From positions 18,786 to 82,785 of the IMG/VR virus record IMGVR_UViG_3300032307_000505: DNA of 64,000 nt; one strand, given 5' to 3'. Shown here one piece after another: positions 1-28,519 of the stretch; position 1 is the stretch's first letter; every line of letters starts with the position of its first letter. The stretch is from a virus (lineage: Duplodnaviria; Heunggongvirae; Uroviricota; Caudoviricetes). The notes beneath the pieces are model-generated. The model worked only from the letters and a program-made list of their open reading frames with translations, was not told the DNA's origin and made no database searches. A program made the translations under genes and the position numbers.

Positions 1-999
1 TATGAAGTTGTATCAAGTATGACTAAGATTCCTGTGAATAAAATGGATGCTGACGATTCTAAAGCATTAATGAATTTAGATAAATCAATCATGGGTAAGG
101 TAATTGGTCAAGACTCTGCGGTTGTAAAGATTGCTAAATCAATCAAAAGAAATCGTTTAGGTATCAAGGACCCAAATCGTCCAATTGGTTCATTCATCTT
201 TTTGGGTTCAACCGGTGTTGGTAAAACTCACTTGGCAAAACAATTGGCTAAAGAGATGTTTGGTACTGAGGATTCACTTATCCGTGTAGATATGTCAGAA
301 TACCAAGAGAAACACACCATCTCTAAATTGGTTGGAGCACCTCCGGGATATGTTGGTTATGAAGAAGGTGGTTTATTAACTGAGAAAGTTAAAAACAAAC
401 CATATTCTGTAATCTTATTTGATGAGGTTGAGAAAGCTCACAAAGATGTTTTCACAGTATTACTTCAAATCTTAGATGATGGACACGTAACAGATAGTTT
501 AGGTAGAAAGATTAACTTCAAGAATACTTTGATTATCCTTACATCTAACTTAGGTGTTAAGAAATTACAAGACTTTGGTACTGGTATCGGATTCTCTAAT
601 AACTCTTACGCAGATGAAGAAGCTAAGAAAGAAATCTTGATGAAAGAGATGAAGAATTTTTTCTCTCCTGAGTTCATTAACCGTATTGACGACACTATTG
701 TCTTCAATTCATTATCTCCTGAAGATATTGAAAAAATCACAGAGATTGAGTTAAAGAAATTAATGACTCGTCTTGGTGAGATGAAATACACAGTGACTTA
801 CAATGACGAAGTAGTAAAATACTTAGCAAAGATTGGATTTGATGAAGTGTATGGTGCAAGACCATTGAAGAGAGCAATTCAAGATAAAATTGAGGATTTG
901 TTATCTGAAGAAGTGTTAACCGGTAAAATGGTCGAAGGAAAATCTTACCAAATTAAAATGGATGGAGAGGAAATCAAAATTCAGAAGAAAGGTAGATAA
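1..999 (+). CDS. ClpC/ClpA-type AAA+ unfoldase, C-terminal D2 module (5' end lies upstream of window)
   Basis: Frame is open from nt 1. Walker A GSTGVGKT, Walker B ILFDEVEKAH, sensor/arginine finger region, and an IGF-type ClpP-docking tripeptide (GIGFSN). Confidence 0.85.
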   Translation, partial: YEVVSSMTKIPVNKMDADDSKALMNLDKSIMGKVIGQDSAVVKIAKSIKRNRLGIKDPNRPIGSFIFLGSTGVGKTHLAKQLAKEMFGTEDSLIRVDMSEYQEKHTISKLVGAPPGYVGYEEGGLLTEKVKNKPYSVILFDEVEKAHKDVFTVLLQILDDGHVTDSLGRKINFKNTLIILTSNLGVKKLQDFGTGIGFSNNSYADEEAKKEILMKEMKNFFSPEFINRIDDTIVFNSLSPEDIEKITEIELKKLMTRLGEMKYTVTYNDEVVKYLAKIGFDEVYGARPLKRAIQDKIEDLLSEEVLTGKMVEGKSYQIKMDGEEIKIQKKGR

Positions 1000-1080: not shown

Positions 1081-1923
1081 TTAGAAGAATCTGTGATTAT
1101 ATCTTGGAATCTCAACTACTTCTTTAAAGTGTAACTTATTTCCAAGTTTTTCAATCATTTGTCTTCCCATCTCAATTCCTTTAAAAACATCCTCAATTAC
1201 CACATATTCGTTTGGTGTATGATAATCATAATATCCGATTGAAAAGTTAATACAAGAAAAACTAAATTTACTTCTCAACGCATAAACATCAGTATAAGGA
1301 TGAATCATGTACTGCATAGAGTCATTGTGCATCCCTTCAGTTAATACTTGGTCACAAACTTCGAAGAATTCTGATTCTCGGTCAAATAAATCTTGACTAT
1401 AACATTTTTCAGTAATCATCCAATTCTCAGGTGCATCAAATTGAATTCCATATCCAACATTAGTAAAGAATTTTGGGTCAGCCTTTTTAGAACCATGACA
1501 TCCCGTTTCTTCAGATACGAAGAATGCTGCTTTTAAATTTGGTGTTTCTTTAAGTAATTTTAAACAAGCGAACACGCCACACTTATCATCACCACCAATT
1601 CCGGTAGGTAACCCGTGTAAATTATACGCCTTCAACGCATCTTTAATTTCACCTTGAGCGTTAGGTAATTGTTCTTCATGAACAATAATCGTATCTAATC
1701 GGTGAACCGTATCGGTGTGAGCAATAACACATGGGAAGTAAAAATCTTCAGGTGTTGTTTCAAGTTCTTGTTTGGTTGCATAAACATTATTATGTTCATC
1801 AACATAATGTTCTATATTGTTTTCCGTCAACCAATTTGTAAGGAATTCGACCATTAGGTCTTCTTGATAAGTTACGGTAGGAACACTAAGAACTTCTTTT
1901 AGTAATAATATATCGTTTGTCAT
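1081..1923 (-). CDS. M28-like zinc aminopeptidase family protein
   Basis: HTDTVH (His ligand), GGDDKCG (Asp-Asp ligand motif), SEETGCHGS (Glu-Glu plus GS) in the order typical of M28/M20-type co-catalytic metallopeptidases. Confidence 0.55.
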   Translation of the reverse strand: MTNDILLLKEVLSVPTVTYQEDLMVEFLTNWLTENNIEHYVDEHNNVYATKQELETTPEDFYFPCVIAHTDTVHRLDTIIVHEEQLPNAQGEIKDALKAYNLHGLPTGIGGDDKCGVFACLKLLKETPNLKAAFFVSEETGCHGSKKADPKFFTNVGYGIQFDAPENWMITEKCYSQDLFDRESEFFEVCDQVLTEGMHNDSMQYMIHPYTDVYALRSKFSFSCINFSIGYYDYHTPNEYVVIEDVFKGIEMGRQMIEKLGNKLHFKEVVEIPRYNHRFF

Positions 1924-1943: not shown

Positions 1944-3077
1944 TTAACTATTTTCCAAACCATCTAAGGAATATTGATATAAAAAATTGTTAAATTCTTC
2001 CTCACCTAATTCAAATGATTTGTATAATCCTAAACTTTTATCTTTAATTCTAAATTTAACGGACATATCAGGGAAATTAATTGAGTCGATAAAAAACATA
2101 ACATTATTATCCTTGGGTACGTTGTACCAATTTTTTAATTTGTATTTTGAAGTGAGTCTATTTCTAAATTCAATATAATCTTTAATTGTATAAACGTCAT
2201 CACTTTGTTCTTCTAATGTTTCACTAATTTTTTTAAGTTGTCTATCAACTTCTCTATTAAACGATACCTTATCAAATTTACTTTCATCTTGAAAGTCATA
2301 AGTATTTTCATACCATCCACCAATTGAATAACCCAAAACTTTTTTAATTATCTCAATAATCATTTCTTTTGATGTGTAATTCCAAAGACCTAATTGTAGG
2401 GCAGTCATATATAGGTCGGCAACAGAAATACTAACCTCATCCATATTATAATTAAAAGTAATTCCATTTTTTTGTAATGGTTCATTAAACTCTTGGGTTA
2501 TAGATTCCTTAGCAACTGAATTCATTTCTTGTTCTTTTTCGGATTCATAATCACCTAAAATCCATCCAATTTCTGTTGGAAATAAATCAAGTAACATGCG
2601 TGATAATTCGGAACGATATTCCTCATCTTCAATGTTATATTCTTTTTCCGGTAATATAATCTGAGCAATATTTTTTAATGTTTCGTTGTTCTCATCATTT
2701 AACTCATAGTACACAATATAACCATCTTTGAAATCCTGTTCTATTTGATACGAATCTTGGAATTCATAACCTTGATATCCAGTAACCGCCTGCATAAACC
2801 AAACATCCTGTTCATCAAGTCCAATATCCTCTAAAAATTGTGTTTCATCATCAAATTTAATGGTAATAATTGATTGACCCAAAGGGTTTTTTTCATAAAT
2901 GTCATATATATCACCATCAACCGCATATAAATCATTTTCACTAATCTTACCTCTAGCAAAATTTCTAAGAGAAACAATTAAATTTCCTTCTTTGTCATTC
3001 TTAGTATCTTGCTCAGTTTGAATAACTCTTTTTACAATATGATTAAGGTCAGATTCCGTTAATTTTATTACTTTCAT
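1944..3077 (-). CDS. hypothetical acidic protein
   Basis: Long ORF. Start moved to the internal Met (MKVIKLTESD) because the upstream ATG at 3164 would overlap the tmRNA 5' end. Confidence 0.5.
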   Translation of the reverse strand: MKVIKLTESDLNHIVKRVIQTEQDTKNDKEGNLIVSLRNFARGKISENDLYAVDGDIYDIYEKNPLGQSIITIKFDDETQFLEDIGLDEQDVWFMQAVTGYQGYEFQDSYQIEQDFKDGYIVYYELNDENNETLKNIAQIILPEKEYNIEDEEYRSELSRMLLDLFPTEIGWILGDYESEKEQEMNSVAKESITQEFNEPLQKNGITFNYNMDEVSISVADLYMTALQLGLWNYTSKEMIIEIIKKVLGYSIGGWYENTYDFQDESKFDKVSFNREVDRQLKKISETLEEQSDDVYTIKDYIEFRNRLTSKYKLKNWYNVPKDNNVMFFIDSINFPDMSVKFRIKDKSLGLYKSFELGEEEFNNFLYQYSLDGLENS

Positions 3078-3153: not shown

Positions 3154-3544
3154 GGGAGTGACATGGAATTGACTATTCGTAATAGTTATTCGGGGCACGT
3201 AGTGAGAAGTTTCCTATCACTTAAATCTATGGATGACAAATTTTAGACGGAAACGTTTTAGACAAACTTTCAGCTGTTGGATTTATCCGCACTGAGGAAG
3301 TTGCTGTAGCCTAATCGGAAACACAACACGGGGTCGATGGACATATAACCTTGCAACAGAAGTCTTTACAAAGGTGTGGTACCTACCCGAAAAGGTACAA
3401 GTGGAGGATTAGTTCTCAGTAAACCGAACCACTTTAAAAATAAGGGAATTGTGAATTTTGTCAGTTTTGAAAAATTGAATAAACGTGTAGTCCTTAATAG
3501 GTAATACAAGTAACACCGGAGTTCGAGTCTCCGCACTTCCACCA
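3154..3544 (+). ncRNA. ssrA: tmRNA (SsrA), phage-encoded
   Basis: 5' GGGAGUGACAUGGAAUUGAC matches the tmRNA 5' consensus GGGGnUGAnnnnGGAUUCGAC. 3' tRNA-like end CGGAGTTCGAGTCTCCG (T-arm) + CACTTCC + A + CCA. The 7-bp acceptor GGGAGTG/CACTTCC has a G3:U wobble (the alanine identity element). Internal ORF ends ...EEVAVA-TAA at 3296..3313. Length 391 nt. Followed by a terminator. Confidence 0.75.
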
Positions 3545-3552
3545 AAATAAAA

Positions 3553-3577
3553 ACCCGTCATAATGATGGGTTTTTTT
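3553..3577 (+). terminator. rho-independent terminator after tmRNA
   Basis: ACCCGTC ataat GATGGGT hairpin then T7. A near-identical hairpin recurs at 8181..8205. Confidence 0.7.
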
Positions 3578-3605: not shown

Positions 3606-4025
3606 ATGGGAACAAATTGCAACGTATGTAGTAATAAATGTAGCGGTATTGAAGGGTATGACGGAAGTTGTTGTTCTGTCGAGGACCGCAATTGGATTAT
3701 GGGACCAATTAATGATAGTCATATTTTTATAGAAAAATTATCTGAAAAATTAGGTGAAAGTGTTAATTATAACGATATTTTTATCGGGTATGAAGAGGGG
3801 AAAGAATTATTTCCGGATAAAACTGTATGGCAATCTGAATTTGCATATCCTGCATTTAGAGTTAAATTAGACCATAAGAAATTACCTTGTATTTTTTACG
3901 ATACCGAAGAAAAACAATGTACCGTTTACGATATTAGACCTGAAACTTGCGAAAATTATGAATGTAATTACTATTCCGTAATCAAATCAATAAACAACGT
4001 TAAAAATTCTTTAGAAAAAAAATAA
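3606..4025 (+). CDS. Cys-rich YkgJ/UPF0153-like putative metal-cluster protein
   Basis: CxxCxxxC...CC near the N-terminus and CIFY...C.VYDIRPETC.NYEC in the second half, the spacing seen in the YkgJ zinc/iron-chelating family. Confidence 0.45.
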   Translation: MGTNCNVCSNKCSGIEGYDGSCCSVEDRNWIMGPINDSHIFIEKLSEKLGESVNYNDIFIGYEEGKELFPDKTVWQSEFAYPAFRVKLDHKKLPCIFYDTEEKQCTVYDIRPETCENYECNYYSVIKSINNVKNSLEKK

Positions 4026-5017: not shown

Positions 5018-5581
5018 ATGAAAGTAATATTTTTGGATAACGATGGAGTAATTTGTTTATACAACAATTGGGGTGGTCGTGCAAAAAAATGGAAAAAGTT
5101 TAAAAAACTTAATCCCGAAGCAATTAACGATAAATCCGCACCAGTTGATGTGAGATTTGATGATTTTGATAAAAAATCTATCAAAATATTAAATCAAGTT
5201 TTAGAAGAAACCGGTGCAGAAATCGTGGTTTCCTCTGATTGGAAATTACATGCTACATTAGAAGAAATCGGAGAATATTACTTATCTCAAGGAATATCAA
5301 AAAAACCAATCGATTTCACACCAAACCTTGAGGACTTTGATTCTAACGCTAATGACTTGTTTATGTGGAAGAGAATGTTAGAGAAAAAGAGAATATTGGA
5401 AATCCAAGAATACTTGGAAAAAAATCCAAATGTTGATAAATGGGTTGCAGTGGACGACTTAAATATGAGCCCGGAATCGAATGGTGGTTATGGATTAGAA
5501 AACTTTGTATTAACCCCAAAATCAACTGAAGGAATAAAACAATCAGGTGTTAAAGAAAAATTATTGGAATACCTTACATAA
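5018..5581 (+). CDS. HAD-superfamily phosphatase, T4 Pnk 3'-phosphatase-domain-like
   Basis: N-terminal VIFLDNDGVI (HAD motif I DxDG). Later EIVVSSDW and KWVAVDDLN resemble T4 polynucleotide kinase phosphatase-domain motifs. No kinase P-loop. Confidence 0.5.
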   Translation: MKVIFLDNDGVICLYNNWGGRAKKWKKFKKLNPEAINDKSAPVDVRFDDFDKKSIKILNQVLEETGAEIVVSSDWKLHATLEEIGEYYLSQGISKKPIDFTPNLEDFDSNANDLFMWKRMLEKKRILEIQEYLEKNPNVDKWVAVDDLNMSPESNGGYGLENFVLTPKSTEGIKQSGVKEKLLEYLT

Positions 5582-9493: not shown

Positions 9494-9532
9494 AATAAAT
9501 TCAAAAAACAATGAATAAATACAAAAAAATTG

Positions 9533-9607
9533 TGTCCTCGGTAGGCCTCGAACCTACATATCTCTCGGTTATGAGCCGAGCGCCTTCACCAATTTAGCTA
9601 CAAGGAC
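9533..9607 (-). tRNA. tRNA-Met (anticodon CAT)
   Basis: Cloverleaf read by eye: acceptor GTCCTTG/CGAGGAC, anticodon arm CTCGG-CTCATAA-CCGAG, T-arm GTAGG-TTCGAGG-CCTAC, discriminator A. Confidence 0.7.
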
Positions 9608-9698
9608 AAAAATTAGGTTTTGGTGTAAACACCCTACATGACTTTAACCTAAAAAGTACACTGAGTAATTTAAAACCCCCAGCGGTTTTTACTGAACC

Positions 9699-16174: not shown

Positions 16175-16699
16175 TTGTTCTTTTGCTAACTTGTAACCAT
16201 TAATAAAAGCGTTAATTGATACTTCATCTTCGTAATATCTTTCAGCAATTTCTTCAAGTGTTTCTTGTTTAGTTCCCACTGGTTTTAATAATGCAGTGTA
16301 GTCAAGTTCTTCTTTTGGAATGATGATTTTGTAACCACTATGGCTAACATAACCTTTTTTAATATAATCAAAAGTGTTAATTATTTCAACCTCCTCACAA
16401 CTTGGATTCTTAACAAACCATTCTAAAAACTCATCATCAATAGCTTGTACACCATCTTTGATTAAGTATTGGTCTGTTGTTAGAATGATTTCAGAATACT
16501 CGCCCTTACAAATATCCATAGTTGCACCACTTAATAATTGTCTTGAAACAATTTTACCATCTAACAGCTCAGTTTTACATAAAACTCGATTAATTAAAGC
16601 ATATACATTAGGTTTAATTTCTTCATAATTAGTGATGTAAATATTTTCTTTTATATCTTGTATGTTTCTCATATCATACATTCTGTGTACATTTTTCAT
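16160..16699 (-). CDS. hypothetical protein, paralog family A
   Basis: Shares the DGV..I..EFL.WFV.NP.C block with 4049..4774 and DYTALLKPVGTKQ with 14056..14367. Confidence 0.5.
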   Translation of the reverse strand: MKNVHRMYDMRNIQDIKENIYITNYEEIKPNVYALINRVLCKTELLDGKIVSRQLLSGATMDICKGEYSEIILTTDQYLIKDGVQAIDDEFLEWFVKNPSCEEVEIINTFDYIKKGYVSHSGYKIIIPKEELDYTALLKPVGTKQETLEEIAERYYEDEVSINAFINGYKLAKEQFKNK

Positions 16700-16756
16700 A
16701 TCAAAGGGTTTTTAAATTAAAAACGATTAACCTATACATCGTGAGGTGTTGATAAA

Positions 16757-16993
16757 CTACTTATTCAACTGCTCAATCCAACTTTGAATTAGTTGCTGTG
16801 TTTCAGCAGGTCTGCCCCTTTTAATTTCATTTAATAAAACTTCAAGAGAATGATTTAAAGGGTCTCTTAAAGGATTTTTAACTTGTTCGTTGTTTAAATT
16901 TGTGTTTTCCATAATCTTATTTGGTTTTATTTCTACAAAGATAAGACATATTTCTTGATTTCCAAATAAATCCATATACGTATTTTTACTCAT
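16757..16993 (-). CDS. hypothetical small protein (gene X; N-terminus duplicated at 14677..14769)
   Basis: 78-aa ORF. Confidence 0.45.
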   Translation of the reverse strand: MSKNTYMDLFGNQEICLIFVEIKPNKIMENTNLNNEQVKNPLRDPLNHSLEVLLNEIKRGRPAETQQLIQSWIEQLNK

Positions 16994-17037
16994 ATAAAAA
17001 CCCCCACCGGTAAGTGAGGGTTTAATTTTTAGAAAAA
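16925..17037. repeat. 113-bp near-identical repeat, copy 2
   Basis: See copy 1 at 14702..14815. Confidence 0.8.
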
Positions 17038-17622
17038 TAAATAATCATTCCATTCTTCCGGAATATGATGAACTTGTTTTATCATCATTAAATAGTGTGG
17101 TCGTCTTGGTTGAGGTATTTCTTTCCCATATTCCTCTAACGTTAAATTTGACTTCTCACTATTACATTTCTTACAAGCGGTTACCAAGTTGTCCCACGCG
17201 TCTTTACCTCCCTTAGATTGGGGTATTACGTGGTCTAATGTTAAAGTTTTTCTATTCTCACATCCACAATAAACACAAGTGTGATTATCTCTACGATAAA
17301 CATTCTCTCTACTTAAAGGAACTTTATGAATCGGTTGATTCACATATTTGAAAACCCTGATAATTGATGGTTTCTTTATATCTAACTCAGGATTGATTAG
17401 ATTAAATGATTCCGGATGTTCGGCAACAACACTCGCGTTACCCTTATAAGTTATTACAAAAGCCCTTTCAGTGTTTATGATAGACCTTGGCATATAACTT
17501 GAATCCAAAACCAATGTTTTTCCGTACTTACTCACGACTTTTGATTTATTAGTTAAACATTCTTTTTGTTCCCCCAGGTGGTATCGAACCACCTTCCCGA
17601 TATTAAAAGTATCGTGCTTCAC
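17029..17622 (-). CDS. HNH homing endonuclease
   Basis: CVYCGCENRKTLTLDHVIPQSKGGKDAWDNLVTACKKCNSEK is a canonical HNH motif. The annotated ATG overlaps tRNA-Lys (17569..17639), so the true start may be internal or non-ATG. Confidence 0.75.
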   Translation of the reverse strand: MKHDTFNIGKVVRYHLGEQKECLTNKSKVVSKYGKTLVLDSSYMPRSIINTERAFVITYKGNASVVAEHPESFNLINPELDIKKPSIIRVFKYVNQPIHKVPLSRENVYRRDNHTCVYCGCENRKTLTLDHVIPQSKGGKDAWDNLVTACKKCNSEKSNLTLEEYGKEIPQPRRPHYLMMIKQVHHIPEEWNDYLFF

Positions 17623-17639
17623 CTTAAAGCTTTAGGGGA
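17569..17639 (-). tRNA. tRNA-Lys (anticodon TTT)
   Basis: Acceptor TCCCCTA/TGGGGGA, D-arm GCTT-TAAGGTG-AAGC, anticodon arm CGATA-CTTTTAA-TATCG, T-arm GGTGG-TTCGATA-CCACC. Confidence 0.65.
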
Positions 17640-17722
17640 ATATTGAGCTCATTCTACCTTAACATTGGGCTCAAAATCTCACATATTTGAGCTTAATAAT
17701 TATGGTTCGTGAGCCACATTTG

Positions 17723-17796
17723 TAGGTGATATGAGACTCGAACTCATAACCTCCTCGGTATCAGCGAGGTGCTCCAACCAATTGAGCTAACCACCT
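17723..17796 (-). tRNA. tRNA-Ile (anticodon GAT)
   Basis: Acceptor AGGTGGT/ATCACCT, D-arm AGCTCAATTGGTTGGAGC, anticodon arm CCTCG-CTGATAC-CGAGG, T-arm ATGAG-TTCGAGT-CTCAT. Confidence 0.7.
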
Positions 17797-18344
17797 AAAT
17801 TATTTTTTGATATAAATTCTTCACGATATTTGTTTATCGTATCAATAACTTCATTCTTATATCGGGAATGAACGTATTGGTGATGTGTTGGACACAAAGG
17901 TATTAAATTTTCAATAGAATTGTTTTCGTGATTTTCATCATAATGATGAACTGAAACAATTTTATTTTCACCACAAATAATACATTCCGGTTTATGTTGT
18001 TCAAAACATATTCTTCTATACTTACTACTTGACCTAATATCTTTAATTTCTTTATAGTTTGGGTTATTTTCCCCACTTCTAAAATGAGTGTTAGAACACG
18101 AATGAGAACAAGTTATTTTTTGTCTTGGATTCCCTAATAAATCTTCAAATTCTTTTCCACAAACAGGACATTCCTTGATAACTCTTTTATAAATTAAAGG
18201 TTTAGACCTTAAATGAGAAATATCGATATTATTATTCTCAATTAATTTTTTCATTTTTCGTCTTGACGTTCCATTATCAAATCCAAAAATTTCTCTCACT
18301 GCTTGGGCAAGAGTTTCACTATTTTTAATTATATCTTCTTCCAT
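17787..18344 (-). CDS. HNH-family homing endonuclease with Cys-rich zinc-finger region
   Basis: CPVCGKEF...CSHSC...CIICGENKIVSVHHYDENHENNSIENLIPLCPTHHQYVH has the HNH core plus extra Cys pairs. Confidence 0.65.
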   Translation of the reverse strand: MEEDIIKNSETLAQAVREIFGFDNGTSRRKMKKLIENNNIDISHLRSKPLIYKRVIKECPVCGKEFEDLLGNPRQKITCSHSCSNTHFRSGENNPNYKEIKDIRSSSKYRRICFEQHKPECIICGENKIVSVHHYDENHENNSIENLIPLCPTHHQYVHSRYKNEVIDTINKYREEFISKNNLGG

Positions 18345-18414
18345 ATAGATAAATATCTAAGAAAGTCGTAAAAGTCGTGTTTGAACCAAATATTTTTATC
18401 ACGACTAACAATAG

Positions 18415-18493
18415 TCGGGTAGACAGGACTCGAACCTGCAATAAAATGTCCTCATCCCAAATGAGGCGACTTAGCCAATTAGTCTACTACCCG
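18415..18493 (-). tRNA. tRNA-Pro (anticodon TGG), unusually long variable region
   Basis: Acceptor CGGGTAG/CTACCCG perfect. D-arm GACT-aattggcta-AGTC. Anticodon arm CCTCA-TTTGGGA-TGAGG (G37). About 10-nt variable loop. T-arm GCAGG-TTCGAGT-CCTGT. Confidence 0.6.
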
Positions 18494-18511
18494 TATTTTA
18501 ATCTATTTCTG

Positions 18512-18598
18512 CGGAGAACAAGGGAATCGAACCCTCACCGGTTTTACCCGGAACATCTTAGCAGGATGCCACTACAAACCAATATTAGACTATTCTCC
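18512..18598 (-). tRNA. tRNA-Ser (anticodon GCT)
   Basis: Acceptor GGAGAAT/GTTCTCC, discriminator G, anticodon arm GCATC-CTGCTAA-GATGT, long variable hairpin CCGG-GTAAAA-CCGG, T-arm GAGGG-TTCGATT-CCCTT. Confidence 0.65.
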
Positions 18599-18674
18599 AT
18601 TTTGTAGGATATCGCTTAACCTACGATGTTGATATCATTACACACCTTCGATATTACTATCAGCGATTTTTTTG

Positions 18675-18746
18675 TAGTCTCTGAGGGAATCAAACCCCCG
18701 CCCTAATATCCGTATTATTAAGTGCTATTCATTACACCAAGAGACC
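18675..18746 (-). tRNA. tRNA-Arg (anticodon ACG)
   Basis: Acceptor GGTCTCT/AGAGACT, anticodon arm TAATA-ATACGGA-TATTA, T-arm GGGGG-TTTGATT-CCCTC (T-loop TTTGATT, C56 replaced). Confidence 0.5.
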
Positions 18747-18803
18747 ATTTTGATGTCTTTCCATCAGTCATCCCTATTATTTGGTAAGGGTGGAACATCC
18801 TTG

Positions 18804-18918
18804 TAGTCAGTGTAGGATTTGAACCTACATTTTCAACAAAGGCCTTTATTGAAAAACTTACACTGTTTTTATAGAGTGGTGTCGTCCCACAGTAGCGTCT
18901 ACCAATTCCGCCAACTGA
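18804..18918 (-). tRNA. over-length (about 115 nt) class-II tRNA-like gene, Tyr-like anticodon loop
   Basis: Canonical class-II 5' end GGTCAGT-TG-GCGGAATTGGTAGACGC (as in E. coli Leu/Tyr) and T-arm GTAGG-TTCAAAT-CCTAC with matching 3' acceptor ACTGACT. About 25 extra nt lie between the D-arm and a candidate anticodon arm AAACA-GTGTAAG-TTTTT (GTA). The variable hairpin is 22 nt. Confidence 0.35.
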
Positions 18919-19021
18919 CCAATTTGAGGTTGAGAAAACCTCTGTATTGTAAGAACTGTGTACGGGTCATTCTTCTTTTCGCCCCGTATAGTATTCCCTT
19001 TCTCACCGGGAACAACACATT

Positions 19022-19225
19022 TTACTTCCATTGAGTTTTTCGGTTATACTTCCAAGTTTTGTAACTTCTGTATTTTATTGATGGGTGACCTTTTTTGAAA
19101 TTTAATCCCTCATCCCAATACATTGGAAATTCAAACTTTAACCAAATTACTCGGTAATCTTTTGAACAAGTCGCCTTGTTCAGTTTCATTCTGTTTGTGT
19201 TTACACTCATAATCTCTGAGTCCAT
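19022..19225 (-). CDS. hypothetical small protein
   Basis: 67-aa ORF between tRNA genes; weak. Confidence 0.3.
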   Translation of the reverse strand: MDSEIMSVNTNRMKLNKATCSKDYRVIWLKFEFPMYWDEGLNFKKGHPSIKYRSYKTWKYNRKTQWK

Positions 19226-19261
19226 TGTTTAGTGGACCTCAAAGATTGTCTAATACTTTTT

Positions 19262-19519
19262 TCATAACCGTAATTTATAAACTCGTTTATATTCGTCCAA
19301 CGCTGACTTCAGATTCTCAATACATTCTCTGTAATTTACATCATCACCTAAATTAAACCTTTCATTTTCTTGTTCTCGTTTGAATAGAACTTTTAACGAA
19401 TTATCAATGTTGGATAAAATGTCCAAGTAAATCAACTCTTTGTCTTTGGATTTCTTTAAATCAAATTTCAAATCTACAATTAGACCTTCTAATTCTTCAA
19501 TTTTTTCATTTTCATCCAT
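19262..19519 (-). CDS. hypothetical small protein
   Basis: 85-aa ORF between tRNA genes. Confidence 0.4.
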   Translation of the reverse strand: MDENEKIEELEGLIVDLKFDLKKSKDKELIYLDILSNIDNSLKVLFKREQENERFNLGDDVNYRECIENLKSALDEYKRVYKLRL

Positions 19520-19533
19520 AACAATTAAATTTG

Positions 19534-19606
19534 GGTGACTAAGGAGAATCGAACTCCCATTTACAGAACCACAATCTATCGTGTTAACCGTTACACTATA
19601 GCCACC
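19534..19606 (-). tRNA. tRNA-His (anticodon GTG) with G-1
   Basis: Extra 5' G(-1) opposite discriminator C73, acceptor GTGGCTA/TAGTCAC, anticodon arm ATAGA-TTGTGGT-TCTGT, T-arm GGGAG-TTCGATT-CTCCT. Confidence 0.7.
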
Positions 19607-19714
19607 ATATTTAAACCTATCAATGTGGGTTTGAGATGTACCCTTTTCAACCCGCTTTCACACCCATCACTCCTAAAGAGCTGTCAGTATCGGATACCAC
19701 ATTTAAGGTTTTTG

Positions 19715-19786
19715 TACTCTAGCAAGGAATTGAACCTTGTTCTCATTCTTATCAGGAATGTGTGCTAACCATTCTACTACAAGAGC
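19715..19786 (-). tRNA. second tRNA-Ile(GAT)-like gene with one acceptor mismatch
   Basis: Anticodon arm CATTC-CTGATAA-GAATG, T-arm CAAGG-TTCAATT-CCTTG, acceptor GCTCTTG/CTAGAGT with a T6:T67 mismatch. Confidence 0.45.
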
Positions 19787-19863
19787 AATTTTACCCCACT
19801 TCACCGGGTTAATGGACCGGATGCCATATGGGAGTGGGGGTTTCCTGTTATATCAGGACTCCG

Positions 19864-19936
19864 TGGTATCGGTTGGAATCGAACCAACGACACCTTGGTC
19901 TTCAACCAAGTGCTCTACCGACTGAGCTACGATACC
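19864..19936 (-). tRNA. tRNA-Phe (anticodon GAA)
   Basis: Acceptor GGTATCG/CGATACC, D-arm AGCTCAGTCGGTAGAGC, anticodon arm CTTGG-TTGAAGA-CCAAG, T-arm GTTGG-TTCGATT-CCAAC. Confidence 0.7.
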
Positions 19937-19996
19937 GGCTCCTGTATACCTTTGCAAAGGTGGTGGTAGTACAGACACTATAATTCCACTATTCTG

Positions 19997-20068
19997 CTCT
20001 CCCGGGAGGACTCGAACCTCCATAAATTGATTAACAGTCAACCGTAATAACCTTTATACGACAGAAGA
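19997..20068 (-). tRNA. tRNA-Asn (anticodon GTT)
   Basis: Acceptor TCTTCTG/CGGGAGA (two G:U), discriminator G, anticodon arm GTTGA-CTGTTAA-TCAAT, T-arm GGAGG-TTCGAGT-CCTCC. Confidence 0.6.
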
Positions 20069-20197
20069 ATTTTTGACTACTACTTAGACTCTTCCGTTCC
20101 GTAATAGTAGTCCAAGGCGTTACGCACCCATCTAGTAACTTTACTTCTCTTGAGTCCGGGTAAGGCCTTACCAACTCAGGGGTTGTTTCCTTGTTTG

Positions 20198-20270
20198 TGG
20201 GTCCTAAGAGAATTGAACTCTTTCCTTATGTTCTTCAGACATACGTACAGACCACTTATACCAAAGACCC
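20198..20270 (-). tRNA. second GAA-anticodon tRNA (Phe-like)
   Basis: Acceptor GGGTCTT/AGGACCC, anticodon arm TATGT-CTGAAGA-ACATA, T-arm AAGAG-TTCAATT-CTCTT. Confidence 0.5.
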
Positions 20271-20408
20271 AAATATGATAATGTTGGAGTACCCATCTCG
20301 CTCCAATCTTAACTGCTTATTCGTAGTTTTACGAGGCCTCGGCAGGGGGTGCAGAATTCTTGAACCTATCTTGGATTGTCGACATCCGAGAGATAGAGAA
20401 AACCATTA

Positions 20409-21056
20409 TCATTTTATTTTTCTACCTAACCTCCAACCGTTAGGTATGTTATCACCTTTAAATATTTTTTTATTCTCAACATCATTAGTAATCCAACAAG
20501 TACCATATTGAGAGTTATTTTTACCTTTTTGATTTATTGAACTTTTTTTACCAATAAGTTTTTTACTACTTTCTTTATGTTTTTTACCGTTCCAATCCGA
20601 CTTGAAATTTTTATATTTTTCAGGATTTGTTTTTAACCTCAGTAATTGATTTTCTGAATGTTTTTTACGTAAGTTTTCTGTAAACAATAAATCAGTTTTT
20701 CTCAATTCCTTTTGTTTTAAAATTCCAGCCTTTGAACATTTTAACATATGTTCTTTATTTAAAAACCCACCATTACCACCTTCTTTAAGGTTCATACATT
20801 TCCCATCACTAATTAGTTCTTTGTTTACTATTTCTTTCTCTCTAAGAATCAATTTTTCTCTATTTGGTAGATATTCAAGTATTTCTTTTGTGTGGTTTTC
20901 AACCCCGTATTTCCTAATACTATGTCTTAACATTGTTCCACTCCCCATATAACCATCCTCAATATTAGTTGTGGAGTGCATCCCAACATACCATCTTCCC
21001 GTTACATTACAAGTTGTTTTGTAAATGTAATGTATGTTTGATTTTTTTCTTGCCAT
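20409..21056 (-). CDS. GIY-YIG homing endonuclease
   Basis: N-terminal IHYIYKTTCNVTGRWYVGMHS...YMGSG is the GIY-YIG module; C-terminal Lys-rich DNA-binding-like tail; sits inside the tRNA island. Confidence 0.7.
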   Translation of the reverse strand: MARKKSNIHYIYKTTCNVTGRWYVGMHSTTNIEDGYMGSGTMLRHSIRKYGVENHTKEILEYLPNREKLILREKEIVNKELISDGKCMNLKEGGNGGFLNKEHMLKCSKAGILKQKELRKTDLLFTENLRKKHSENQLLRLKTNPEKYKNFKSDWNGKKHKESSKKLIGKKSSINQKGKNNSQYGTCWITNDVENKKIFKGDNIPNGWRLGRKIK

Positions 21057-21115
21057 TTCAGTTTCCTTTAATAATAAATATCTCAGAAAACTGAAAAGTA
21101 CAAAAAAGTTTATGG

Positions 21116-21196
21116 TGGAAAGTAGTGGACTCGAACCACTCCCGTGAGGACCTGATTTACAGTCAGGTTGCCGTATCCGAACGACTTTTACTTTCC
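21116..21196 (-). tRNA. tRNA-Tyr (anticodon GTA), CCA encoded
   Basis: Acceptor GGAAAGT/ACTTTCC perfect, discriminator A + genomic CCA, anticodon arm CCTGA-CTGTAAA-TCAGG, class-II variable arm, T-arm AGTGG-TTCGAGT-CCACT. Confidence 0.7.
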
Positions 21197-21452
21197 AATT
21201 TTTGTACCTCGTGATGGTTATGCTCCACCTCCATTTGTATGTAAAACAAATACGCTCCTATTACGCCAACGAGGCTGGTGGATGAATTATTTTTTTTATA
21301 GTAGAATTCGTCAACCTCAAAACTACTTTGTACCGAGAAATGGTAACGCTCCATTCTAAAGTCAGATATGAGCCGTCTTTGGTCCTTGACCTCTCGGCAT
21401 TTTGGTGGACATAGATTCATCATCTATTCTTGGGTTTCCACCGAACCCGTTG
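21197..21452. other. GC-enriched non-coding spacer with an internal repeat, function unknown
   Basis: No credible ORF (track ORFs here overlap tRNAs). Two related units at about 21207..21262 and 21337..21370 (tttgtacc..atggtta.gctcca..). Confidence 0.3.
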
Positions 21453-21524
21453 AGGTGATAGTAGGATTCGAACCCACGTAACAGATTTTGCAGACCTGTG
21501 CCTAAGCCACTCGACCATATCACC
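21453..21524 (-). tRNA. tRNA-Cys (anticodon GCA)
   Basis: Acceptor GGTGATA/TATCACC, discriminator T, anticodon arm CAGGT-CTGCAAA-ATCTG, T-arm GTGGG-TTCGAAT-CCTAC. Confidence 0.65.
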
Positions 21525-21531
21525 ATTTTTG

Positions 21532-21603
21532 TTACCCCTAATGGAATCGAACCACTCCCGCATGGACCAAAACCATGTGTACTAACCGATATACGAAGGG
21601 GCA
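21532..21603 (-). tRNA. tRNA-Gln (anticodon TTG)
   Basis: Acceptor TGCCCCT/AGGGGTA, anticodon arm CATGG-TTTTGGT-CCATG, T-arm AGTGG-TTCGATT-CCATT. Confidence 0.6.
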
Positions 21604-21609
21604 AAGTTG

Positions 21610-21697
21610 CGGAAGGAGTGGGACTCGAACCCACACGTGTGTTACCACCAACGGTTTTCAAGACCGCGACCCGTAGACCAACTTGGCTTACCCTTCC
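21610..21697 (-). tRNA. tRNA-Ser (anticodon TGA)
   Basis: Acceptor GGAAGGG/TCCTTCC, discriminator G, anticodon arm GCGGT-CTTGAAA-ACCGT, long variable arm, T-arm GTGGG-TTCGAGT-CCCAC. Confidence 0.65.
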
Positions 21698-24613: not shown

Positions 24614-26278
24614 ATGAGAGTATTAGGATTTTCGGTAGGTCACGACAAAGGTGCGGTTATCATAGAAAACGGAAAAGTAGTTGTTGGGATTACCCAAGAA
24701 AGACTTTCAAGGATAAAACACGACGGTGCATATCAAGGGGGATTAATTCCCGTTGAATCCATAAACTATTGTTTAAACGCTTTGGGAATAACTTATCATG
24801 ATATCAATTTATTTGTATATAGTACAACAGAAATTGTTGATGATGTTGATTCTCAATTTTTTAGTAGATATAGTGGGTTAAATAGAAAAAAATTAAAGTT
24901 TTTACCTCATCATTTAGCCCACGCGTATTCTACTTTTTTTAGTTCAGGATTTGAAGAATCCGCAGTTATTGTTGCGGATGCGTCAGGTAGTATTTTGAGT
25001 TATAAAAACAAATTACATAAATGGTACGATGTAGATAGAACAGAATTAGACCCTGAAGAAGATTGGACCGAAGGTATTTCATTATTTCATTTTACAAAGA
25101 ATAACTATAATGAAGTATACAAAAAATGGATTAAATATCCGGTTCCAATTGATACTGATGAAGGTGTTTCGGTTGGTACTGTTTATTCCACAGGTTCTCT
25201 TCAATTAATTTACGAACCAAACGAACATACGTGGCCTGCGGGTAAATTAATGGGATTGGCGTCTTACGCGGATAAATCTATTGTTGACGAAGCTCCTGAA
25301 TATGTACAAGAATTAGATAATGATATTTTTATACCAAATAACACAATTTACCCAAAAGTAACTTGGCAATCAGATTTCTTTTCAAAATCGTGTGTTGCAG
25401 GAATTTATCAAAGAGAACAAGAACGTGCGTCATTAATTTTAGCAAAAATTGCCAAAAATTTAACAAAATCAAAAAATGTTTGTGTCGCGGGAGGGTCATT
25501 CTTAAATTGTAATTCAAACGAAATTATTTTAAATTCAGGTTTATATGATAATTGTTATTTCTTAGCTCCAAGTGATGATAGTGGGATTCCATTGGGATGT
25601 GCTTGGTATGCGTATCAACAACTTACAGATATTGTTTCCGTTGAACCAATGTCTCCGTATTTTGGTAAAAAATATTCAAGACAAGAAATTATAACTGCAA
25701 TTAATCATAACCCTCATTTAAATGTTATTGAATACCAAGATGAAGATACTTTAATTAAAGAAGTAACACATTGGTTAACACAAAATAGAGTTATTGGTTG
25801 GTTCCAAGGTGGTTCTGAAATTGGTCCAAGAGCATTAGGTAATCGTTCAATATTGGCATCCCCAATTCAAAAATGGATGACAGGTCATATTAATGGAGAT
25901 ATTAAACGAAGAGAATGGTATCGTCCTTTTGCACCTGCGGTTTTATTTGACCATCAATCAGATATTTTTGAATCTGATGTTTATTCACCTCATATGTTAG
26001 TAACAACAACCGTAAAAGAAGAATGGAGAAATAAAATCCCTGCAGTTACTCATGTGGATAATTCGGCTAGACATCAATCGGTTACTAAAGAAAATAATCC
26101 AAGGTTTTATTCATTAATTAATGAATTTTATAACCAAACAGGTGTACCAGTATTACTTAACACAAGTTTTAATGGACCTCACGAACCAATTGTTGAGACC
26201 CCTCAAGAGGCAATTAATACATTTATTTCAAACAAACTTGACATATTAGTCATTGATAATTTTATTATAATCAAGTAA
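24614..26278 (+). CDS. NodU/CmcH-family carbamoyltransferase (copy 1)
   Basis: N-terminus MRVLGFSVGHDKGAVIIENGKVVVGITQERLSRIKHDG matches the conserved carbamoyltransferase N-terminal domain; HHLAHAYS and the C-terminal domain are also present; 554 aa. Confidence 0.75.
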   Translation: MRVLGFSVGHDKGAVIIENGKVVVGITQERLSRIKHDGAYQGGLIPVESINYCLNALGITYHDINLFVYSTTEIVDDVDSQFFSRYSGLNRKKLKFLPHHLAHAYSTFFSSGFEESAVIVADASGSILSYKNKLHKWYDVDRTELDPEEDWTEGISLFHFTKNNYNEVYKKWIKYPVPIDTDEGVSVGTVYSTGSLQLIYEPNEHTWPAGKLMGLASYADKSIVDEAPEYVQELDNDIFIPNNTIYPKVTWQSDFFSKSCVAGIYQREQERASLILAKIAKNLTKSKNVCVAGGSFLNCNSNEIILNSGLYDNCYFLAPSDDSGIPLGCAWYAYQQLTDIVSVEPMSPYFGKKYSRQEIITAINHNPHLNVIEYQDEDTLIKEVTHWLTQNRVIGWFQGGSEIGPRALGNRSILASPIQKWMTGHINGDIKRREWYRPFAPAVLFDHQSDIFESDVYSPHMLVTTTVKEEWRNKIPAVTHVDNSARHQSVTKENNPRFYSLINEFYNQTGVPVLLNTSFNGPHEPIVETPQEAINTFISNKLDILVIDNFIIIK

Positions 26279-26281
26279 TTT

Positions 26282-27871
26282 ATGAGTACAATTTATGGAT
26301 TCTTTACCGGGTCACATAGTCCGTCGATTGCGTTAGTTAAAGATGGTAAAATAACATTTTGTATTGAAGAGGAGAGATTAACTCGTATAAAATCCGGAGA
26401 TAATTACGACATTAATTGTGAATTATCTTGTGTTGAAGCGGAAAACTTTACCGGATTAAAAATAACCGATGCTGATTATCGAATATTTGCAAATCCAACA
26501 CCTGACGCATTCGCTCGTAGAATCACCAATAATAACTACGAAAAAGTTAGTCACCATACTGCACACGCATATGGGGCATATTATACGAGCGGTATGAAAG
26601 GAAAATCCATTACAATCACATACGATGGTGGAGGGGAAAGTACCGTAATGAAAGTTTATCTGTGTGATGATGGGAAAATGAGTTTAATACAAAGTCACCC
26701 ATTAGCGTCATTTGGTAGTTTATCACATGTTTGGGGTTTTAGTACCGCATCAATGAAAGGATATGACCAATATGGCGAAGGTGTGTGGAAAATGTGTAAA
26801 GATGAAGGAAAATTAATGGGAATGGGTCCAAATGGATATTATGATAAAAAAATTTATAAAATGTTATCATCTGTAATTAATTATAAAAATTTTAGATTCT
26901 ATCCATCCGCATCATCAAGTAAAACTAGATTCTTGGGTGATATGTTGAAAATAAATGGTTATTTTGACACCCAAGAAAAAATGGAAATTTATTCCTATAA
27001 CCTACAAAAAATAACTGAGGATTTATTTCTAACATTTATTAACGATTTACATAATTTATACCCCGAATATAAACAACTTTGTTTTGGAGGTGGATTATTC
27101 GCAAATGTTAAAATGAATCAAAAAATTAACGAGCTTGATTGGGTTGATGAAATCTATATTTACCCCCCAATGGGTGATGAAGGTTTATCGTTGGGTGCTT
27201 GTATTCATAAAGCGGTTGAGTTAGGTGAAATTACAGAACCATTTGAATTTAATGATGTTTATTTTGGAAAATCATATAATAATGATGAAATTTATGAAAT
27301 ATCCAAAAATTATAATTTCACAAGAAAAGAATATATCCCAAGTGAAATTGCAAAAAACATCAATGAAGGAGAAATTATTGGTTGGTTCCAATCCGGTTCA
27401 GAATATGGACCAAGAGCTCTTGGGGCAAGAAGTATTTTGGTTAGACCAACAGAAGTCTCAACACATAAAGTTTTGAACCAACGATTAAATCGATATGACA
27501 CAATGCCATTCGCTCCAATTATCATGGAAGAATATTTTGACAATGTATTTACACCTTCAAAATCAAAATATACATCAGAGTTTATGACTCTATGTTATAA
27601 TACAAATGAGGAATGGATTGATAGAATTCCATCAGTAATTCAAAAATCAGATAAAACCGCAAGACCTCAAATTGTTAAACATTCAAAAATTCCTAAATTT
27701 TGGGGGATATTAAATGAATATCATAAATTATCGGGAATCCCATTATTGTTGAATACCTCATTTAATTCTCATAACCAACCTATTATAGAAAACCCACAAC
27801 AAGCATTTGAATCATTAAAACTTGGAGTGATTGATAAATTAATTATTGAAGATTATGTATATTTCTCTTAA
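26282..27871 (+). CDS. NodU/CmcH-family carbamoyltransferase (copy 2, divergent paralog)
   Basis: MSTIYGFFTGSHSPSIALVKDGKITFCIEEERLTRIKSGDNY, HHTAHAYGAY; same domain order as copy 1; 529 aa. Confidence 0.7.
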   Translation: MSTIYGFFTGSHSPSIALVKDGKITFCIEEERLTRIKSGDNYDINCELSCVEAENFTGLKITDADYRIFANPTPDAFARRITNNNYEKVSHHTAHAYGAYYTSGMKGKSITITYDGGGESTVMKVYLCDDGKMSLIQSHPLASFGSLSHVWGFSTASMKGYDQYGEGVWKMCKDEGKLMGMGPNGYYDKKIYKMLSSVINYKNFRFYPSASSSKTRFLGDMLKINGYFDTQEKMEIYSYNLQKITEDLFLTFINDLHNLYPEYKQLCFGGGLFANVKMNQKINELDWVDEIYIYPPMGDEGLSLGACIHKAVELGEITEPFEFNDVYFGKSYNNDEIYEISKNYNFTRKEYIPSEIAKNINEGEIIGWFQSGSEYGPRALGARSILVRPTEVSTHKVLNQRLNRYDTMPFAPIIMEEYFDNVFTPSKSKYTSEFMTLCYNTNEEWIDRIPSVIQKSDKTARPQIVKHSKIPKFWGILNEYHKLSGIPLLLNTSFNSHNQPIIENPQQAFESLKLGVIDKLIIEDYVYFS

Positions 27872-28484
27872 CGAAGAAAAAATTATTTTAACTTTTAACC
27901 CATATCCTAATTTAAAAATTTCAGGACCGGACGAACTTTATTATGTTGAATTACGAGAATACCCAAAAGATGACGACCAATCTTTATTTGTTGAAGGTTA
28001 TAAAATATTAGGTGATGGAGGCGTTTTTAATTTACCAATTGAATTTCATTTTGATTTTGAAATTTCTGTTTTTAAATTTATTGATAACTATGGAATTAAA
28101 AAAATATTCACTCATCGATTTAATGATTATGGAAAACAAGTTCTTTTTAATTTAGAGACATCTAATTATGAAGAATGTTTGTTATGGGTTTCAAAAGTCG
28201 AGGAATACTCAAAAATTCATGGTTGTAAAATGCATTTAAACACTAACTTTGATGAAATAAACAAAAGATACGTGTCATATTATCAAGTTGATGGTATTGA
28301 TTATTACAAAACATATAATATTGGTAGATACCCTAAAAATAGTACCGATTTTAGAACTATTGACCCAAGAATGGAAGGTCTAATTTGGTTTGGAAATTGG
28401 AAAAAATTTTGGTCTTATCAACACCCTAGATTGTGGACTAATTTGTCAAGTGAAGAAATAATTGATGATATTTTGGCACTTTAA
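27846..28484 (+). CDS. hypothetical protein
   Basis: 212-aa ORF overlapping the end of carbamoyltransferase 2. Confidence 0.45.
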   Translation: MKIMYISLNEEKIILTFNPYPNLKISGPDELYYVELREYPKDDDQSLFVEGYKILGDGGVFNLPIEFHFDFEISVFKFIDNYGIKKIFTHRFNDYGKQVLFNLETSNYEECLLWVSKVEEYSKIHGCKMHLNTNFDEINKRYVSYYQVDGIDYYKTYNIGRYPKNSTDFRTIDPRMEGLIWFGNWKKFWSYQHPRLWTNLSSEEIIDDILAL

Positions 28485-28519
28485 TTTTTTTTGTATATCT
28501 TTGTTGAAAATTAAAACAT

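Follow-up and report, generated by a model that had tools for sequence, protein, structure and literature searches.

A virus-restricted tmRNA family with a conserved, non-canonical tag in large phages of probable Bacteroidota hosts

Introduction

Transfer-messenger RNA (tmRNA), the RNA of trans-translation, is encoded by several groups of phages. It was described in eight Bxz1-like mycobacteriophages and in Bacillus phage G, and mycobacteriophage DS6A carries an RNA that consists of the tRNA-like domain (TLD) only (PMC4131195). In one survey, 402 of 18,146 phage genomes carried a tmRNA, with two-piece forms in Melnitz and the pelagimyophages, which are marine myophages (PMC9004378). Huge phages carry tmRNA together with the protein SmpB (PMC7162821), and Cellulophaga phage Calle encodes 20 tRNAs and one tmRNA (PMC8776804). 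Phage tmRNAs are thus known yet functionally unexplained, and the peptide tags that they encode have rarely been examined.

Here we describe a tmRNA gene in a 64,000-nucleotide (nt) stretch of viral DNA, positions 18,786 to 82,785 of IMG/VR record IMGVR_UViG_3300032307_000505, hereafter the window. A sequence-only reading of the window had proposed a complete, phage-encoded tmRNA at positions 3154–3544 with a tag peptide ending in VAVA. Our comparative analysis makes it probable that this gene is a functional phage tmRNA, which tags proteins with GNVLDKLSAVGFIRTEEVAVA in a large phage (source contig, ~170 kb) infecting Bacteroidota. It belongs to a large, diverged lineage found on viral contigs only, whose tag is clearly under selection, is wholly unlike the host consensus and is conserved at the 'wrong', N-terminal end. 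This lineage raises the question of whether phage trans-translation only frees ribosomes or channels truncated proteins into virus-controlled degradation.

Results

Identity and structure of the tmRNA

A scan of the whole window with Rfam covariance models returned a single tmRNA match (RF00023) at 3154..3544 (+), which reaches 67.4 bits (gathering score, 47; E = 4.3e-24) and spans model positions 1–374 of 374. Nine close homologues score between 65.6 and 70.5 bits. The match has the same coordinates as the complete tmRNA of the sequence-only reading, which had also named ARAGORN as a check. Run at an 80% threshold (-ps80), ARAGORN reproduces the boundaries 3154..3544, yet reports 'Tag not identified', so that this second check upholds the ends of the gene and leaves the window tag uncalled. 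The gene is a one-piece ssrA of 391 nt with an encoded CCA, and its identity and boundaries are established by Rfam, ARAGORN -ps80, and RNAalifold.

The two ends of the RNA come together in a tRNA-Ala-like domain that has no anticodon arm. Specifically, the 5' strand of the acceptor stem, GGGAGUG (3154..3160, +), pairs, as read from the sequence, with the 3' strand CACUUCC (3534..3540, +), which is also placed by the Rfam alignment. The resulting 7-bp stem contains a G3:U pair, with G3 at 3156, the identity pair for alanyl-tRNA synthetase (AlaRS). A 5-bp T-arm, CGGAG-UUCGAGU-CUCCG (3517..3533, +), is defined by the sequence and the Rfam alignment, and the discriminator A at 3541 is followed by a CCA encoded in the gene (3542..3544, +). 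ARAGORN -ps80 assigns tmRNA positions 1–28 to the 5' part of the TLD and 352–391 to its 3' part. The 5' end reads GGGA, where GGGG is usual, and position 4 forms an A-U pair in place of the usual G-C. We considered this start as the sole cause of the failure of ARAGORN to call the gene at its default setting and rejected it, since introducing G4, C384, or both in silico did not restore detection.

We collected relatives of the gene from IMG/VR by exact-pattern scans with its 3' end (9 loci), its 5' end (28 loci), and an internal 22-mer (at least 119 loci). The collection comprises 129 loci, and an nhmmer profile built from the first ten sequences matches 127. From these, we extracted 87 full-length family genes, 69 of them unique. 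A total of 66 family members served as input for RNAalifold, which recovers the acceptor stem, where compensatory changes occur, and the long helix 2 (tmRNA positions 18–47 with 330–363), where most pairs are compensatory. All five T-arm pairs show compensatory changes across the family. Additional hairpins are predicted at tmRNA positions 178–198, 226–245, 247–280, 292–307, and 308–326, with four compensatory pairs in hairpin 226–245 and seven in hairpin 308–326. The nearest relatives already switch helix pairs, as in GGUACC/GGUAC versus GGUUUC/GAAAC.

The region of pseudoknot 1 (PK1; AGUGA...UCACU and UCC...GGA, 3202..3233, +) follows the Rfam alignment, with a second stem that is our own tentative reading. 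In the alignment of relatives, its U59-A80 pair becomes C59-G80 in the L001 type. PK1 is plausible, and the PK2–PK4 region folds into nested hairpins with compensatory changes. An all-against-all covariation scan for pseudoknots proved too noisy, and RNAalifold was used in its place. According to the conservation profile, the most conserved core of the family, AAGUGGAGGAUUAGUUCUCAGUAAACCGAACCAC...AAUAAGGGAAUUGUGAA, lies in the PK2/3 region (3399..3454, +), although this conservation is partly built in, because the 22-mer used to collect the sequences was taken from it.

The tag reading frame and its peptide

The point at which translation would resume is placed by the Rfam alignment and 66 homologues, which set the resume codon at GGA (3249..3251), directly after the context A(-4)GAC (context and codon, 3245..3251, +). 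Here, the Rfam consensus UAAuU|GCaAACgAc aligns to UAGAC|GGAAACGUU (UAGAC|GGA, 3244..3251). The A at -4 is present in 66/66 family members; in E. coli, A86, the A at -4, is the chief determinant of tmRNA frame choice (PMC2481249). The open reading frame (ORF) that begins at this codon (3249..3314, +) encodes GNVLDKLSAVGFIRTEEVAVA in 21 codons, ends at a TAA (3312..3314), and is kept in 66 unique homologues. It thus combines a resume codon four bases past the conserved A, a stop codon, and a hydrophobic peptide end. ARAGORN at its default setting calls the same frame in 26 homologues, with tags such as GNVINKLSTIGLIRTEEVSVA and GNILDKMSAIGLIRAEEVVVA. The frame ...GFIRTEEVAVA-stop and the VAVA ending of the sequence-only reading are therefore borne out, with a correction of one base to the stop codon, which had been given as 3311..3313.

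Translation from the column aligned to the window resume codon yields one tag family in 66/69 unique sequences, G-N-V-[LI]-[ND]-K-[LM]-[SA]-x-[VIL]-G-L-[IV]-R-[TEQA]-[ED]-[EA]-...-V-x-A, with a length of 21 or 22 residues. Residues G1, N2, K6, G11, L12, and R14 are near-invariant. At the other end, Ala is constant as the last residue, Val predominates just before it, and the third-to-last position is free (A, S, T, N, E, V). The window tag ends in E-V-A-V-A and differs from the canonical ClpXP-type degron ...[YF]A[LV]AA, which the sampled Bacteroidota tags do match; family endings are V-[ASTNEV]-V-A, V-V-A, or, rarely, V-A-A, and there is no aromatic residue nearby. Three outlier tmRNAs (L038, L045, and L054) have the 3' half of the family scaffold and very different putative tags, GES[YF]IDADGNITFNGQSVEFADLELV in L038 and L045 and, according to ARAGORN, ...EVEYAYAA in L054.

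The pattern of substitutions points to selection on the peptide itself. Across the first 17 codons of 37 distinct versions, pairwise differences at codon positions 1/2/3 number 3851/1635/5371, which makes position 2 the most constrained in the tag frame. Synonymous changes make up 32% of codon differences in this frame versus 18% and 6% in the other two, with swaps such as Leu TTA/CTA/TTG and Gly GGA/GGC. Only three sites of the 63-nt tag ORF vary within the subclade of the window: two are synonymous third positions, and one is an Ala-to-Val change. At locus L020 (12948..13335, +), the tag ORF is identical to that of the window at the nucleotide level, and ~60 differences are found elsewhere, in the PK1 region and the 3' hairpins; this pattern reflects either extreme constraint on the ORF or a recombinant, mosaic RNA. 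Because substitutions are biased by codon position and synonymous changes are in excess in the frame, the tag peptide itself is under selection. A conserved peptide must be recognized by something, which renders unlikely a proposal of the sequence-only reading, namely that the tag is used for rescue without degradation. More broadly, both the RNA helices and the tag of this phage-restricted family are under purifying selection.

The sequence-only reading had singled out the VAVA end as the atypical feature and suggested that it may change recognition by host proteases. An ssrA tag ending in LVA gives a half-life of ~13 min in E. coli compared with ~8 min for LAA (PMC3511798). Because the LVA tag is degraded fast, a V-A ending alone does not amount to an escape from proteolysis, and the last Ala of the phage tag is constant. 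The oddest feature of the tag is instead the conservation of its 14 N-terminal residues, GNVLNKMxxIGLIR, which recalls the way in which adaptors or Lon recognize residues inside a tag.

Distribution and origin of the family

The family is restricted to viral contigs. An exact search for the 22-mer core in one genome from each of 185,579 species of bacteria and archaea found no match. With the tmRNA as query, blastn returned no match among the 50,697 deposited phage records of INPHARED, and a megablast search with the first 20 kb of the window matched only a tRNA-Glu gene of Cellulophaga phages. The flanks of the window gene look phage-like, and its homologous loci lie on IMG/VR viral contigs, in keeping with the phage origin given by the sequence-only reading. 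Phage hallmarks in the window include 25–27 tRNA genes, an endolysin, HNH and homing endonucleases, a T4-type RNA ligase, endonuclease VII, and a match to a virion structural protein; no integrase domain was found among window ORFs of at least 100 aa. A total of 30 of the 87 full-length family genes have no encoded 3' CCA, with continuations that include CAA, CTT, and CTA, so these RNAs would need the CCA-adding enzyme of the host.

A Bacteroidota host is supported by the promoter motif described below, by one window ORF with a sorting domain of the T9SS type, and by the similarity of the tRNA-Glu gene to that of Cellulophaga phages. To sample host tags, we searched genomes for the coding pattern G-[ED]-x-N-Y-A-L-A-A-stop, which by design favours YALAA. 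The pattern occurs in at least 120 genomes, almost all of them Bacteroidota, including Flavobacteriaceae, Bacteroidales, and Sphingobacteriales. ARAGORN tmRNAs in 103 pattern loci carry the tags GENNYALAA (62), GESNYALAA, GEENYALAA, GETNYALAA, and others, and GETNYALAA is cited as the native Bacteroides tag (bioRxiv 10.1101/2025.03.18.644028). The YALAA tag is thus widespread among Bacteroidota, as the sequence-only reading had held for the host, although a pattern sample of this kind does not imply universality. Set against these GE(N/T/S)NYALAA host tags, the phage tag is clearly different, and its frame does not end in ALAA.

Against the profile of the phage family, the sampled Bacteroidota tmRNAs align only over the ~70-nt 3' tRNA-like part, with ~30 bits, and reveal no close bacterial source lineage. 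The commonest upstream pentamer and resume codon among them is UAAAC|GGC (34/103), and the consensus of the phage family is UAAAC|GGC AAC. Because the Gly resume codon and the upstream pentamer are common to both groups and similarity is otherwise limited to the TLD, the family appears to have split off long ago from a Bacteroidota-type tmRNA and to have diverged from it, and phages are now its home.

Expression signals

The tmRNA gene appears to form a transcription unit by itself, with a promoter in front and a terminator behind. The segment 3109..3139 (+) can be read from its pattern as a Bacteroidota-type promoter, with TTTG at -33, a 19-nt spacer, and TAccTTTG at -7, and 14 nt separate it from the mature 5' end of the tmRNA. 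The motif matches the published sigma-A promoter consensus of Bacteroides and Flavobacterium. Across the window, the search pattern TTTGN{17,21}TANNTTTG has 19 copies where 5.07 are expected, and none of 100 shuffles reaches 19. A 31-nt sequence of the same promoter type, TTTGGAAATCAAGAAATATGTCTTATCTTTG, is present twice, at 14713..14743 (-) and 16936..16966 (-), 2.2 kb apart, and may represent a duplicated promoter cassette.

Downstream of the gene, a 12-bp hairpin whose 3' arm runs into a U-tract (3549..3575, +) resembles an intrinsic terminator, in agreement with the sequence-only reading, which had given the tmRNA a terminator of its own. The hairpin has a folding energy of -13.8 kcal/mol (z = -3.8), and 1 of 200 shuffles folds as well. 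It was not listed by a simple terminator scan; folding of the region supported it.

Neighbouring genes

The window opens with the C-terminal 332 codons of a ClpC/ClpA-like AAA+ unfoldase (1..999, +), which runs off the window start and matches Pfam AAA_2 and ClpB_D2-small and PHROG 4871. Full-length copies in loci L004 and L330 encode 671 aa, organized into D1 (AAA, AAA_lid_9) and D2 (AAA_2, ClpB_D2-small) modules and a short middle with a weak UVR motif. No Clp_N domain was found in the full-length protein, and its scores against the NCBIfam equivalogs (ClpB, ClpA) all fall under the cut-offs. The sequence GIGF occupies the position of the ClpP-docking loop in D2 and, by analogy with ClpA, ClpC, and ClpX, may serve this function. 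The nearest deposited relatives are at most 57% identical and are found on 634–642-kb genomes of uncultured phages. The ClpC-like gene lies upstream of the tmRNA and on the same strand in 41/43 family loci with at least 6.5 kb of upstream sequence. Beyond the window start, a 125-aa protein with a UVR motif is encoded divergently from the ClpC-like gene in L330 (4335..4712, +) and L004 (2676..3053, -). It recalls the McsA-type partners of ClpC and could be an adaptor.

Two genes separate the unfoldase from the tmRNA. The first encodes a 280-aa M20-family metallopeptidase-like protein (1081..1923, -), which matches PHROG 4191 'peptidase' (6.5e-33) and has a weak Pfam Peptidase_M20 match of 24.1 bits, just below the gathering score of 24.6 bits. 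Among the 79 loci whose upstream sequence reaches 3 kb or more, 72 have this gene. The second, divergent from the tmRNA, encodes a 377-aa protein (p377; 1944..3077, -) with no detectable family, as Pfam, PHROG, NCBIfam, and PDB returned no match. Its AF2 model has a pLDDT of 86.7 and gave no meaningful fold match, and tblastn detects the protein in 62 of the same 79 loci.

A ClpP-type proteolytic subunit of 248 aa is encoded at 28520..29266 (+) (Pfam CLP_protease, 1.2e-50), with the Ser motif GMCASMG and His and Asp at the expected places. PHROG matches named 'head maturation protease' raised the alternative of a capsid maturation protease, which we rejected: the protein scores 227 bits as a true ClpP versus 61 as a head-maturation protease, and its gene does not lie in a module of head genes. 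Two tandem genes for Nol-like carbamoyltransferases and a heptosyltransferase-like ORF immediately precede clpP (24614..29266, +), an unusual setting for a Clp protease.

The surroundings differ where the tag differs. In 12 viral loci, the tmRNA scaffold of the family carries a second tag class, GDIFA[DN]ATVGHFVTEGAEVVA. ClpC-like, M20, 377-aa, and SmpB genes are all missing from the available flanks of these loci, which in seven cases include at least 5.9 kb of upstream sequence. Tag class and neighbourhood thus co-vary, which suggests a link without proving it.

SmpB and the translation-related gene set

No SmpB gene was found in the 64-kb window. SmpB is encoded in 11–13 relatives, convergently and centred ~1.1–1.7 kb downstream of the tmRNA 5' end, and scores 154.6 bits against a cut-off of 130, which clears both NCBIfam SmpB models. 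Contigs of the subclade closest to the window are absent from the 80 SmpB-bearing viral loci listed. At the SmpB site of related phages, downstream of the tmRNA, the window has a 139-aa ORF (3606..4025, +) with a weak CxxCxxCC (zinc- or iron-chelating) domain, which tblastn detects in only nine other loci, mostly the closest relatives of the window. In L007 (IMGVR_UViG_3300042563_002067), a GOLLD RNA (RF02032, 250 bits) with its 5' end cut occupies positions 1..298 (+), ~1.4 kb from the tmRNA homologue and adjoining the phage SmpB gene; no GOLLD reached the gathering threshold in the window.

A cluster of 25 ARAGORN tRNA genes is interspersed with small ORFs at 9532..21697 (-), and two further tRNA matches (21205..21275 and 10798..10868) come from Rfam only; all of them are on the strand opposite the tmRNA. 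Genes of RNA-repair type lie near the tmRNA and the tRNAs, namely one for a HAD_SAK_2 domain protein ('Swiss Army Knife RNA repair') and one for a T4 Rnl1-type RNA ligase, and one such gene lies at 5018..5581 (+). Combined with the tmRNA and tRNAs, these genes suggest a toolkit for translation upkeep or for countering host defence.

Discussion

We propose that the tmRNA would be transcribed from its own host-type promoter, end at its own terminator, and be charged with alanine by host AlaRS through the G3:U pair. SmpB, probably from the host in this phage and from the phage in several relatives, would deliver it to stalled ribosomes. Translation would then resume at GGA (3249), four bases past the conserved A, and the stalled polypeptide would gain the tag (A)GNVLDKLSAVGFIRTEEVAVA. 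This tag combines a conserved N-terminal segment, hydrophobic in part, with an acidic patch and a ...V-x-A end that is hydrophobic; its most likely role is to mark proteins for breakdown by a Clp-type AAA+ protease. A candidate machine of the phage itself is the ClpC-like unfoldase without an N-domain, two genes upstream, together with ClpP and the M20 peptidase, which could finish degradation. Overall, ribosomes would stay available and truncated proteins would be recycled while the infection proceeds.

Several observations weigh against parts of this scheme. The RF00023 alignment has low posterior probability in its centre, and ARAGORN at its default setting calls no tmRNA in the window or in the local region. 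With no SmpB in the window, function would rest on host SmpB accepting a diverged tRNA-like domain with a GGGA start. ClpP is encoded ~25 kb from the tmRNA, and the proposed link between the two is our inference only. The reader of the tag could be host ClpXP, Lon, or FtsH instead of ClpC-like/ClpP. The co-variation of tag class and neighbourhood is confounded by phylogeny, because the two classes occur in different phage lineages, and the synteny of the ClpC-like and M20 genes could simply be the conserved gene order of one phage lineage.

Explanations that deny the RNA a role in tagging agree poorly with the conservation of the gene. Prophages and genomic islands often integrate into ssrA, and prophages carry ssrA fragments (discussed in PMC9004378), so the gene might be a passive passenger or integration relic, a host ssrA or attP-type fragment acquired through imprecise excision and of no use to the phage. 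Yet the gene covers the full tmRNA model, its core is absent from the species genomes searched, the sampled Bacteroidota tmRNAs resemble it only in the short 3' part, no integrase domain was found among the window ORFs of at least 100 aa, and its family persists on more than 120 viral contigs, where both compensatory and synonymous changes are seen. We regard an origin of this kind as very improbable and largely refuted. A decoy is, in our estimate, just as improbable. Such an RNA would tie up host SmpB or stop trans-translation in the host, a role proposed for the TLD-only RNA of DS6A; molecules that consist of the TLD alone can be strong inhibitors of tmRNA (PMC4131195), and the window has no SmpB of its own. 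The mRNA-like domain, resume context, and tag ORF are nevertheless conserved here under coding constraint, and SmpB sits beside the tmRNA in several relatives, which argues for use rather than blockade. It is also improbable, if a little less so, that the tag serves ribosome rescue only, by supplying a stop codon with no signalling. The essential activity of E. coli tmRNA is ribosome release, not proteolysis, and the non-LAA ending would suit such a role. A neutral tag would drift, however, and the near-invariant residues are kept across diverged tmRNAs, with position 2 of the codons most constrained, synonymous changes in excess in the frame, and a C-terminus that stays hydrophobic and always ends in Ala.

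If the tag does signal degradation, as we favour, its reader may belong to the host or to the phage. It is quite possible, if short of probable, that the tag is read by host ClpXP (through ...V-x-A), by Lon, or by FtsH, and that an adaptor of the host perhaps binds its N-terminal part. The phage tmRNA would then mainly add rescue capacity when host defences or phage nucleases make non-stop mRNAs, and the neighbouring ClpC-like, ClpP, and M20 genes would be unconnected to it and serve other tasks, for example, the remodelling of host proteins. The activity of LVA endings with E. coli proteases (PMC3511798) and the wealth of translation-upkeep and RNA-repair genes in the window (25–27 tRNAs, T4-type RNA ligase, HAD_SAK_2) are consistent with a host reader, and synteny alone does not prove coupling to the phage proteins. 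On the other side, the freedom of the third-to-last residue combined with strongest conservation in the N-terminal 14 residues fits a dedicated partner better than a C-terminal degron of the ClpX type, and the tag class co-varies with the ClpC-like/M20/p377 block, although neither point is decisive. We more tentatively entertain a private degron, in which the N-terminal GNVLNKMxxIGLIR is matched to the ClpC-like protein, ClpP, and M20, possibly with the 377-aa or UVR-domain neighbours as adaptors; on present evidence this is rather unlikely. If true, the virus would carry a near-complete system for trans-translation and proteolysis, with phage SmpB in some members, and the pathway would be independent of host ClpXP and Lon, so that host proteases, or anti-phage control of proteolysis, could neither read nor block it. 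Should the reader be identified, the tag could serve as an orthogonal degron for synthetic biology in Bacteroidota.

The family also bears on how phage tmRNAs are counted. ARAGORN, at its default setting, calls a tmRNA in only 26 of the collected viral loci, against 127 that match the family, and misses the window gene. As ARAGORN is the tool of published phage surveys (PMC7162821, PMC9004378), such surveys probably under-count phage tmRNAs. Our literature searches returned no description of this tag, or of a phage tmRNA tied to a ClpC-like unfoldase or an M20 peptidase. Phage tmRNAs as such are already known; this family, its tag, and its proteolysis-gene context appear to be undescribed in the searchable literature.

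Among known tags, the engineered AANDENYALVA shares the Val-Ala end of the phage tag, but only the last two residues are comparable, and the organism in which it was tested is not a member of the Bacteroidota. A precedent is offered by Mycoplasma and Mesoplasma, whose ssrA tags, in work by Gur and Sauer from 2008, reportedly have ~27 aa, end in ...AFA, and are read by Lon and not by ClpXP. Like the phage tag, these are long, non-LAA tags in which internal residues carry recognition, and they co-evolved with a different protease. Unlike them, the phage tag has an unrelated sequence, and its candidate partner is a phage ClpC-like/ClpP pair to which its coupling is conjectural.

The phage tmRNAs described earlier resemble the window gene as virus-borne trans-translation RNAs, often accompanied by many tRNAs and sometimes by SmpB, and the roles proposed for them, upkeep of the translation machinery or protein recycling, are alike. 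The tmRNAs of Melnitz and the pelagimyophages are two-piece, whereas that of the window is one-piece. This comparison with earlier phage tmRNAs is based on DNA matches and published descriptions. The bacterial one-piece SsrA (RF00023), especially that of Bacteroidota, shares its architecture with the phage RNA: a TLD with G3:U, the long helix 2, a plausible PK1, Gly as resume codon in the context UA[AG]AC|GG, whose A stands at -4, an ORF end of a hydrophobic residue and Ala, downstream hairpins and putative pseudoknots, and a length of ~390 nt. The tag of Bacteroidota SsrA has 9 aa, compared with 21–22 aa in the phage family, and only the first Gly, N/E at position 2, and the final Ala are common to both. 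In contrast to Bacteroidota SsrA, the phage family has a highly conserved PK2/3 core of its own and is found on viral contigs only.

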